From contig CAWBHS010000049.1 of NCBI GenBank assembly GCA_963788655.1, positions 236,917 through 300,916 on the forward strand: a DNA stretch of 64,000 nt, written 5' to 3'. Under the pieces are notes generated by a model, which saw only the letters and a program-made list of their open reading frames with translations, was not told where the DNA came from and ran no database searches. Both the position numbers and the translations under genes were made by a program. This document shows positions 58,039-59,242 of this stretch, in pieces. The first letter of the stretch is position 1. Each line of letters opens with the position of its first letter. Source of the DNA: an uncultured Verrucomicrobiae bacterium (GTDB lineage: Bacteria > Verrucomicrobiota > Verrucomicrobiia > Limisphaerales > JAFGQR01).

Positions 58039-58252
58039 ATGCGTTCATCGATGCCGAGCGAGATCGAATGCGGGCTGAGCGATGGCCTGGAGCACGTACT
58101 GCTTCGGATATTCGGACGGCCACGGTGACTTTGACTGTTCTGGCTTGACGAAGCTTTTCGGCGGGCCGTTTTGAGTTTGTGTTTTGCGGCTCCGCGTGGT
58201 TTCATCGGGGCTGGGTTGGCACGGAGATCGGTCAGACATGAAAAAGCATAAC
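58039..58252 (+). CDS. Cassette 9: very small membrane protein, probably frameshifted
   Basis: ATG after attC8; hydrophobic fragments; TAA in R''. Confidence 0.4.
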
Positions 58253-58366
58253 CAGTCGGTAGAGCGAAGGGCTGCCCCGCCTGGCAGCGAGAGCACTTGG
58301 TTCTTTGGATGTTCACTTCACCGTCAAGCGGGCGCTGCCGGCAGCCCTCGCTCACCTCGGCGTTAG
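58246..58366 (+). other. attC9; R' interrupted after GTTAG by a group II intron
   Basis: GCATAAC…gagcgaagggctgcc/ggcagccctcgctc…GTTAG|; the CC resumes at 59184. Confidence 0.88.
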
Positions 58367-59183
58367 TTGTGACATGAAGTCGCATTCATCACTGCTGAGC
58401 ATGGGCAACCTGACTCAGTCCTGCCTTTCGCGGCAGGTATTCCAGGGAAGCATGCGTTGGACGGGCGGCCGCAAGGCTACTGTCCAGGGTGTGAAGCCTT
58501 CCCGACAATGTAGCCAGCCTGGGAGCCTCAATCCGGGTGCGGCGCTAGAATTGGATGGTAGGGTCAACCCACGTGAACACTCGCAAGCATCGTCAGAGGA
58601 ACGAGCCATACGAGGCTGTTTTAAGGCTCCGGCCAAAAGAAGGCCAGCGGTCAAGTTCGGGCTGTCTAACGTAGCCCGACGCGAATGGCGCACCGCCGGT
58701 GTAGAGAGTGGACCTAACCCATCCTGTGGAGAATGCGGAACATGGAAAAGCTGCCAGTTCCCGCCTGGAGAGTATCCAGGCAAGCCGACCGCAAGGCAGG
58801 CCCAGGGGAGGCAGCATGAAGAGGATCGAACAAGCCAAGGCCGGTCGGTAATGGACCGGATATGCCCACGTCGATCTGGTGTCTCCTGGCAAGAAAATCA
58901 GCGGAACCCCTTCAAGCGAGAGAAGCATAGGACGAGCGACGCCCGTCGCTTGGTGCCTCTCGGTGCTGCGGCCCAAAGGAGCCGAGCGCGATATGGCCGC
59001 CGACCGGTATTGCCAAGTGGGATTGGGAAGGTCCATGACGCCTTTGGGTGTCACCGGCCTCCTGGTTACGCGGGTCCCCCGCATCCGGGGTGGCCTTGGA
59101 GAGGCTTGAGCCGTGATGAAGGGAAACTTTCAAGTCCGGTTCTTAGGGGGGCGTGGGCGGGTGACCGCCTACGCCTACCCGGT
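58367..59183 (+). mobile_element. ORF-less group II intron (IIB/chloroplast-like), 817 nt
   Basis: Domain V gagccgtgatgaagggaaactttcaagtccggttc (59108-59142, AGC triad); domain VI ending cctacccggt; 5' end TTGTGACATGAAG; EBS1 CTAACG (58666-58671) and EBS2 CGAGG (58611-58615) complement the 5' exon; no RT motifs. Confidence 0.9.
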
Positions 59184-59242
59184 CCCGTGCGTGCGAACGT
59201 CGCGGGCGAGTCGAACGCGCAACCACAACGAAAGGTCAACAC

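Follow-up and report, generated by a model that had tools for sequence, protein, structure and literature searches.

We report an 817-nt group II intron without an open reading frame (ORF) in the top strand of an integron attC site of an uncultured Verrucomicrobiae bacterium. It probably represents a IIB1 lineage that is non-autonomous, mobilised in trans and specialised for attC, in which an RNA guide fixes the nucleotide of insertion and a second determinant selects attC. By sequence, the intron combines a top-strand position in attC, an EBS1 complementary to CGTTRG and near-identical copies at different attC sites, and it shares its target with sister introns that encode a reverse transcriptase (RT) lacking an endonuclease domain. 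The element is no novel type, since UHB.I2, a member of the lineage, has already been published. What is added here is the exact empty allele, a corrected EBS2 with loss of EBS2a pairing, a count showing that pairing alone is insufficient, and a mosaic, long-lived ORF-less lineage. Coordinates are positions in the window, the whole 64-kb stretch of DNA that was analysed, and C-numbers are contigs of the same genome (G000). Articles are cited from the parts of their text that were available.

Intron ends and insertion point in attC R'

The ORF-less IIB1-type intron occupies 58367-59183 (plus strand) and lies inside the attC R' core, which it splits on the top strand as GTTAG|CC. Both Rfam models that the preliminary description had proposed searching matched the plus strand, the domain I model group-II-D1D4-7 (RF02012) at 58419-58544 (63.2 bits) and the domain V-VI model Intron_gpII (RF00029) at 59106-59183 (49.6 bits). 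In silico excision of the intron yields GTTAGCC, the reverse complement of the downstream R'' GGCTAAC at 62193. An empty allele was present on contig C59, where a paralogue of the downstream cassette (97% over 2.9 kb) lacks the intron and starts CGTTAGCCCGTG behind a different attC. The junction is therefore exact, and there was no target duplication. The two corresponding claims of the preliminary description were thus confirmed, that of an 817-nt ORF-less group II intron by the Rfam matches together with the empty allele, and that of an R' core rejoining as the complement of GGCTAAC by the exact junction on C59. A further rule proposed there, that a cassette starts with the complement of its own R'', held exactly in the five preceding cassettes, with one mismatch in each of the three cassettes before these.

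The intron termini, UUGUG...GGU, depart from the GUGYG/AY group II consensus. UUGUG...GU ends occur in most of the lineage (UUGCG..GU in UHB.I2) and are a lineage variant, the boundaries here being fixed by the empty allele. A 313-codon frame across the intron (58305-59246) had no Pfam match and was treated as a shadow frame. No internal sigma-70 promoter was found in 58300-59300. None of the 24 RNA runs listed had more than 0.09 of the query words, and the exon junction was not found in four RNA runs, which gave only contigs of relatives.

The array is headed by an integron integrase gene on the minus strand (51445-52806), which a frameshift splits into two halves; both match TIGR02249, with scores that fall short of the cut-off for the whole protein. 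With this integrase, R''/R' cores and paired arms, nine attC sites lie in a row in the window. The ninth, which hosts the intron, extends along the top strand (58246-58366) from R'' GCATAAC at 58246 through the L boxes to the GTTAG of R' at 58362-58366, and its arm-pairing score was 16.0, against a control 99th percentile of 13.2. The short cassette directly upstream (58036-58245) has no plus-strand ORF of its own of at least 60 codons. The downstream cassette (59184-62199, plus strand) starts with CC, the rest of R', and contains an ORF at 59243-61282 and the R'' at 62193.

The intron boundary is four bases past the G|TT crossover of attC, which places the intron within the downstream cassette, four bases from its start; formally, it is part of that cassette. 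None of upstream gene, R'', L boxes, GTT core and crossover is disrupted by the insertion, which should therefore not block the integrase. It would follow from this geometry that the intron can be spliced from cassette transcripts and can travel with an excised cassette. Co-moved cassettes were not found, there being no cross-matches among 44 intron-bearing downstream flanks.

The downstream attC is interrupted between L' and R' by an IS110-family element on the minus strand (62316-64000, ends approximate). Related IS110 copies on C59, C48 and C27 start after similar L' boxes, and the non-coding end of the element carries two GTCGTTAG/ATCGTTAG motifs that resemble attC R' and are possibly its guide sequences. 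Frameshifts were also seen in several cassette genes (55091-55834 and 61282-62190), as in the integrase (51445-52806), and in the C50 RT, a pattern that suggests assembly indels rather than decay.

Structure of the intron RNA

The intron folded far better than shuffled sequences (z -5.04), and a consensus fold of 32 sequences placed 94 pairs in domain I, 50 of them with compensatory changes. A short AARC epsilon' bulge is a feature of IIB1 introns. Domain I (58373-58744) has such a bulge in epsilon' AAGC (58494-58497), which was invariant and unpaired in the 32 sequences, and it also contains alpha (58427-58431) and alpha' (58681-58685). In the IC2 loop, beta AGCCTC (58524-58529) pairs with beta' GAGGCT (58612-58617), with 100% of cells paired and four double changes across the 32 sequences. 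The alpha and beta pairs exceeded all 500 shuffles. Domains II (58750-58815) and III (58823-58877), whose boundaries were set by eye on the fold, are followed by an ORF-less domain IV (58882-59102) that has lost its start codon and holds a hairpin (58936-58949) and an R-I-A-K codon remnant (59007-59017). Domain V (59108-59142) carries an AGC triad, and domain VI (59146-59183), located by Rfam and the fold, has a bulged branch A at 59177 and forms the intron's 3' end. Group II identity is given by the domain V triad, the bulged A of domain VI, and the covarying domain I and tertiary pairs, and subgroup IIB1 by the 6-nt EBS1 in the Id3 loop together with the AGC triad and the epsilon' bulge.

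The preliminary description had seen a full-length AGC domain V; the triad stands, and the length is 35 nt, not 34. The extra U, at 59114-59115 in the lower stem, was present in seven of seven ORF-less copies of this genome, and a 35-nt domain V occurred in only one other complete homologue, with the extra base at another place. The extra U could impair catalysis. In a search for gamma-gamma' covariation, the pattern used left gamma unplaced in 30 of 50 introns. A candidate EBS3 at 58704 was promising in a few copies and was not upheld, as the +1 base (G, C, A or T) was not cleanly predicted; the authors of UHB.I2 likewise found no normal EBS3 in the intron they describe (PMC7923331, in the part available).

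EBS1 pairs with the R' core

IBS1, CGTTAG (58361-58366), is made up of a conserved C and the first five bases of R'. EBS1 had been placed in the Id3 loop as CTAACG and had been taken to read the R' core, and both proposals proved correct. The single-sequence fold and the 32-sequence consensus fold put CTAACG (58666-58671) in the loop of the Id3 hairpin (58657-58679), and CTAACG pairs with CGTTAG and covaries with its targets. We aligned 107 introns that had 22 nt of flank or more and represent 99 unique targets; at 94 of these targets, the top-scoring hexamer of the Id3 loop region reached 5/6 or better. Guide and target occurred as CTAACG/CGTTAG (46), CTAACG/CGTTGG (11) and CGAACG/CGTTCG (7), and further compensatory guides were seen in TTAACG/CGTTAA and in a shifted TAACGT/NCGTTA, which cuts at GTTA|G. 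Relatives outside attC have unrelated guides, each matching its own target, so that EBS1 is placed independently of the attC sites. A scanner made 95 attC calls in the genome, a few of them duplicate or on the reverse strand; 9/50 calls with GTTAG or GTTGG were occupied versus 0/34 with GTTCG, as an EBS1 of CTAACG predicts.

A sub-lineage with introns starting TCGCG has EBS1 shifted by one base and the cut at GTTA|G (L077, L094, L108, L116, L140, L179 and L185); its four complete members are all ORF-less. Two loci, L123 (157-3164, read on the minus strand) and L131, hold tandem introns in one attC, with an ORF-less intron at GTTA|G directly before an RT-coding intron at GTTAG|, so that two registers of one site have been used in turn. 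L096 and L114 are twintron-like, with a non-attC relative carrying its own guide near the domain I end of an attC-type intron.

EBS2 is reassigned, and its pairing is relaxed

EBS2 had been assigned to CGAGG at 58611, and this assignment did not hold. The motif (58611-58615) is complementary to CCTCG, but it overlaps beta' GAGGCT, and it showed no covariation with the targets (1739/2000 permutations reached the observed value). The loop that did covary with the targets comes right after the CATCGT helix strand. IIB1 introns are described as having a 5-bp EBS2 and, two nucleotides upstream, an EBS2a that pairs with position -14 (PMC8643678, in the part available). In this register EBS2 is GAGGA (58596-58600), EBS2a is C at 58594 (the whole element being 58594-58600), and IBS2, at -13 to -9, is ACCTC (58354-58358) in the L'-R' spacer. 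EBS2 forms four of five pairs here and zero to four at the sister sites, and EBS2a is unpaired with -14 in the window intron.

The loop and its register are proven by the non-attC relatives, nine of which were chosen by eye. At least four of five Watson-Crick EBS2 pairs were found in 8/9 of these relatives versus 9/87 attC-type introns, and EBS2a was paired in 7/9 versus 13/87. EBS2a in attC-type introns is mostly C and position -14 mostly A (C/A in 38/87 introns). Pairing of EBS2 with its own target nevertheless exceeded pairing with permuted targets (1.92 vs 1.56 of 5; 1/2000 permutations), a difference that kinship inflates, and a CCAAG sub-type of EBS2 scored at least 4 at all seven of its sites. 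Thus, EBS2 is relaxed in the attC lineage, not abolished.

What selects attC

The genome contains 12,384 CGTT[AG]G sites, of which only 48 fall in attC calls, and base pairing alone is therefore insufficient to pick out attC. When EBS1 and EBS2 were combined at the lowest score of an occupied site, 5,838 non-attC sites remained versus 42 attC sites, and 114 non-attC sites were still left after an L'-like motif and G/C at +1 had been added. The proposal that attC is targeted by base pairing thus survives in part: EBS1 reads R', but EBS1/EBS2 pairing alone does not suffice for specificity. EBS1 pairing sets the position of the cut, and something else must select attC. Because the attC lineage pairs only weakly through EBS2 and no longer through EBS2a, a second determinant is needed; by exclusion, it is probably the structure of attC or a contribution of the RT.

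In an arm-pairing test against 600 control sites, 51/76 testable flanks exceeded the 95th percentile and 39/76 the 99th, with 25/76 not passing; 23 targets fell outside the test through a short flank or the lack of a GTT-like end. Folding of 52 occupied top strands predicted positions -20 to -15 to be paired (unpaired probability approximately 0.1) and -8 to -1 to be much more open (0.4-0.7). A paired L' arm next to an open -8 to -1 would fit a hairpin-plus-guide mode, or RT contacts on L'.

Weak selection on EBS2a has been tied to single-strand targeting (PMC8643678, in part), and as the sister RT has no endonuclease a single-stranded target at the replication fork is expected (PMC7923331, in part). 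In 25/30 sedentary integrons the attC bottom strand is on the leading-strand template (PMC5371416, in part). The attC top strand would then be on the lagging-strand template, a link to intron homing that we infer. On the intron strand, GC skew had a positive sign in only 8/11 cases, and its values were tiny.

Copies, RT-coding sisters and other introns in the genome

BLAST of the genome recovered seven full ORF-less copies (98.9-100% identical), plus partial copies, and four RT-coding relatives of approximately 2.2 kb each, which are probable helpers in trans. The RT encoded on C99 has RVT_N, RVT_1 and GIIM domains and no endonuclease match. Each of the seven full ORF-less copies is precise at its ends, and the sequences to either side are unrelated from copy to copy. 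There are 14 intron 5' ends in the genome, 13 with a visible flank, and CGTT precedes the intron in 13/13. Nine of these flanks are at attC calls, and the arm test added one more, on C44; the rest are a half site without detectable R'' (C80), one flank with an extra G and one 28-nt remnant. The genome BLAST and the metagenome flanks thus agree with the earlier expectation that homologous copies sit mostly at attC-type sites.

On C44 and C46, RT-coding copies follow one and the same upstream cassette and attC and lead into different downstream cassettes, which may reflect separate insertion events, recombination between introns or an artefact of assembly. A second family of group II introns, not related to the first, also lies in the attC top strand, in the left half of the site, about ten bases past R''. 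It has four copies, C38:56048-58223 (plus strand) and others on C24, C62 and C59 (L011, L005), and its RT branches far from the attC IIB1-type RTs. A third family, with five RT copies of equal score (C39, C60 with two, C68 and C107), inserts before TGG at sites that are not attC-like.

Distribution of the family and its ORF-less lineage

We searched for the family with an internal pattern that included neither EBS1 nor flank. It identified seven loci in genome contigs, of which the five with an intron 5' end and flank are all from Verrucomicrobiota, and at least 121 loci in metagenomes. Non-attC relatives are under-sampled in these sets, because the pattern contains the beta motif of this clade. 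BLAST matches were obtained in 32/301 genomes of the order, many of them to domains V-VI only. A pattern search of 401 genomes of the phylum found no further member of the family, but its gap range was so narrow that it recovered only one of the own-genome copies, and the blank therefore says nothing about distribution. Among plasmids, blastn matched 252 records, none of them over more than 80% of the query, and the best 30 of the 252 were to domains V-VI only. Introns at six plasmid RT loci begin with GTGCG, and the sites they occupy lack a GTT-like core at the end.

Of 50 complete introns, 26 were shorter than 900 nt, 22 were longer than 2,000 nt and two were twintron-like. The domain IV hairpin was present in 22/24 ORF-less attC-type introns (seven of the 24 being the copies of this genome) versus 0/22 RT-coding introns, and the R-I-A-K codon remnant was kept in 23/24 ORF-less introns, R-I-A-K itself being conserved in 22/22 RT-coding ones. 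Compared with the resident RT introns C99, C44 and C46, the window intron was 95-97% identical in domain I, 85% over domain II, 79% over domain III and 62% where domain IV begins. In that last region, five of six ORF-less introns from other samples were 73-77% identical to it. An RNA tree of domains I-III placed the window intron as sister to C44. The simplest reading would be an old ORF-less lineage in which domain I has been replaced from a local RT-coding sister.

A quick tree of intron-encoded proteins (IEPs) joined the attC-type and two non-attC proteins in a single clade with SH-aLRT 99, beside which stood six plasmid RTs of 51-54% identity; the tree contains no class-labelled references, two non-attC rows occur in it in duplicate, and its row L123b carries the protein of the tandem neighbour. 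Membership of the sister IEPs in class CL1 is probable from their likeness, by eye, to the protein of UHB.I2.

Proposed mechanism and alternative explanations

In the mechanism that we favour, the intron would be transcribed with the cassette array and spliced as a lariat, with the RT/maturase of a sister helping in trans. It would then reverse-splice into the single-stranded top strand of an attC, probably at a replication fork. EBS1-IBS1 pairing would fix the exact nucleotide and select GTTAG or GTTGG over GTTCG, and the second determinant would most likely be the folded L-arm hairpin just upstream, or the L' box as read by the RT. After a cassette reshuffle, the conserved C-G-T-T of any attC would rebuild IBS1.

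It is conceivable that pairing by EBS1 and a degenerate EBS2 does all the targeting and that the attC bias comes from purging elsewhere or from attC spacers that happen to suit EBS2, and the pairing data lend this idea something. EBS2 pairs better with its own targets than with permuted ones, and with a free register the EBS2 of the window intron scored at least 3.4 at 32/48 attC sites, compared with 2,199/12,336 other CGTTRG sites. We nevertheless think it unlikely, as the non-attC sites that pair as well as occupied ones number in the thousands (the 5,838 versus 42 above) and still all 13 visible flanks in this genome are attC or attC-like, although an intron spliced from the sense strand should be tolerated at many other sites. 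Slightly less probable again is an origin by insertion with full EBS1, EBS2 and EBS2a pairing, after which the integrase moved intron and cassette together and left weak IBS2 pairing as the trace of shuffling. With the crossover between -5 and -4, IBS2 belongs to the upstream cassette and would be replaced at each move, and the downstream cassette did move, given its C59 paralogue behind another attC. Such shuffling is hard to square with the lack of matches between any two of the 44 intron-bearing downstream flanks, with the common upstream site and different downstream cassettes of C44 and C46, and with the good pairing of the CCAAG sub-type at all seven sites; moreover, with EBS2a mostly C and -14 mostly A, few attC sites can ever have matched.

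Passive spread of an inactive remnant, by attC or intron recombination and not by retrohoming, could be read from the extra U in domain V, the loss of the ORF and the mosaicism, which points to recombination. We regard this as improbable for the ORF-less copies, because all seven full ones end precisely between flanks that are unrelated on either side, the intron folds far better than shuffled sequences (z -5.04), and more than half of the complete homologues (26 of 50) fall below 900 nt and have a conserved domain IV in common; trans-mobilised ORF-less IIB1 introns are, besides, already known (PMC8643678, and PMC2882425 for their origin, both in part). An IIC-attC intron or a derivative of one would also target attC, with structure probably contributing. 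That identity is refuted by strand, position and RNA structure, for an intron that lies in the top strand and R', not the bottom strand and R'', that has a 6-nt EBS1, an AGC triad, an EBS2 loop and beta-beta', and whose RT falls outside the IIC-attC description (as given in the available parts of PMC7923331 and PMC3001079).

Retrohoming of a trans-mobilised IIB1 intron stands as our preferred account. More tentatively, and with the odds somewhat against it, the element may be an old, widespread, SINE-like ribozyme lineage of integron arrays with a conserved RT-docking domain IV of its own, a domain I acquired from any RT-coding sister present in the same genome, and recognition of the folded attC top strand in place of EBS2/EBS2a pairing. 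If true, homing guided by DNA structure would have arisen a second time and independently, in a IIB1 intron, and the element would travel on cassettes and leave them functional. A sense intron in R' could ride on cassettes, filter expression of the downstream cassette through splicing and seed recombination between arrays. The presence of relatives with strict EBS2/EBS2a beside relaxed ones would allow a direct test of pairing against DNA structure in targeting, and with its compact size of 817 nt and a defined RT as helper, the ribozyme would be a simple start for an attC-directed insertion tool.

Comparison with known systems

Reviews treat homing to attC as a speciality of class C introns, on the bottom strand. 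The IIB1 lineage described here reaches attC from the other strand, through a 6-nt guide to the most conserved attC bases.

In open-access full text, the only IIB intron that we found reported at attC was UHB.I2, which comes from the metagenome of a soda lake and is of type IIB1 with a CL1 IEP (Sonbol and Siam 2021, PMC7923331, in part). Like the window intron, UHB.I2 lies in sense orientation directly after attC, and like the sister RT its IEP has no endonuclease domain (PMC7923331). By eye, it shares the 5' end, the beta/beta' motifs and an Id3 hairpin loop ending AACG with the window intron, and its RT has long blocks in common with the sister RT. UHB.I2 very probably belongs to the same lineage. 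The preliminary description was thus right in assigning the intron to a IIB-like lineage distinct from IIC, which is IIB1-type and in sense orientation; with UHB.I2 in print, the lineage is not undescribed. UHB.I2 differs in being a single RT-coding copy with an EBS1 that we read as AGAACG. Its authors noted poor exon conservation and speculated on a role for the hairpin, and the available part of their description mentions neither an EBS1 that reads R', nor a lineage, nor ORF-less forms (PMC7923331).

The IIC-attC introns (S.ma.I2 and relatives) occupy the bottom strand of attC, where they enter R'' at TTGT/T and lie antisense to the cassettes (PMC3001079, PMC8876359 and PMC4424553, each in part), separate the gene from its attC, and have a 3-4 nt EBS1 and no EBS2 (PMC3001079, PMC7923331); one top-strand IIC case, in Enterobacter cloacae, is cited in PMC7923331. 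They resemble the window intron in being specialised for attC with single-stranded targets, and the attC hairpin probably matters in both. The window intron differs in strand, position and orientation, lying in the top strand, within R' and in sense, and it keeps gene and attC together. It has a 6-nt EBS1 on a IIB1 scaffold, and the IIC combination of a CGC triad, a 3-4 nt EBS1 and no EBS2 was not found in it.

Closer in life style are the TeI3 introns of Thermosynechococcus elongatus, ORF-less IIB1 introns that proliferated with an RT acting in trans (PMC2882425, PMC8643678, in part) and that likewise have a remodelled domain IV with ORF remnants (PMC2882425). TeI3 introns go back to one deletion in one genome, occupy diverse sites and mostly keep EBS2a (PMC2882425, PMC8643678), whereas here the ORF-less domain IV is common to many samples, the target is attC and EBS2a pairing has been lost. 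EcI5, the IIB1/CL1 model, has the EBS2 loop, a 5-bp EBS2 and an EBS2a-IBS2a(-14) pair, and it needs strict EBS2a pairing (PMC8643678, in the part available). The non-attC relatives identified here obey the EcI5 rule for EBS2 and EBS2a, and the attC lineage has dropped the EBS2a pairing that EcI5 requires.
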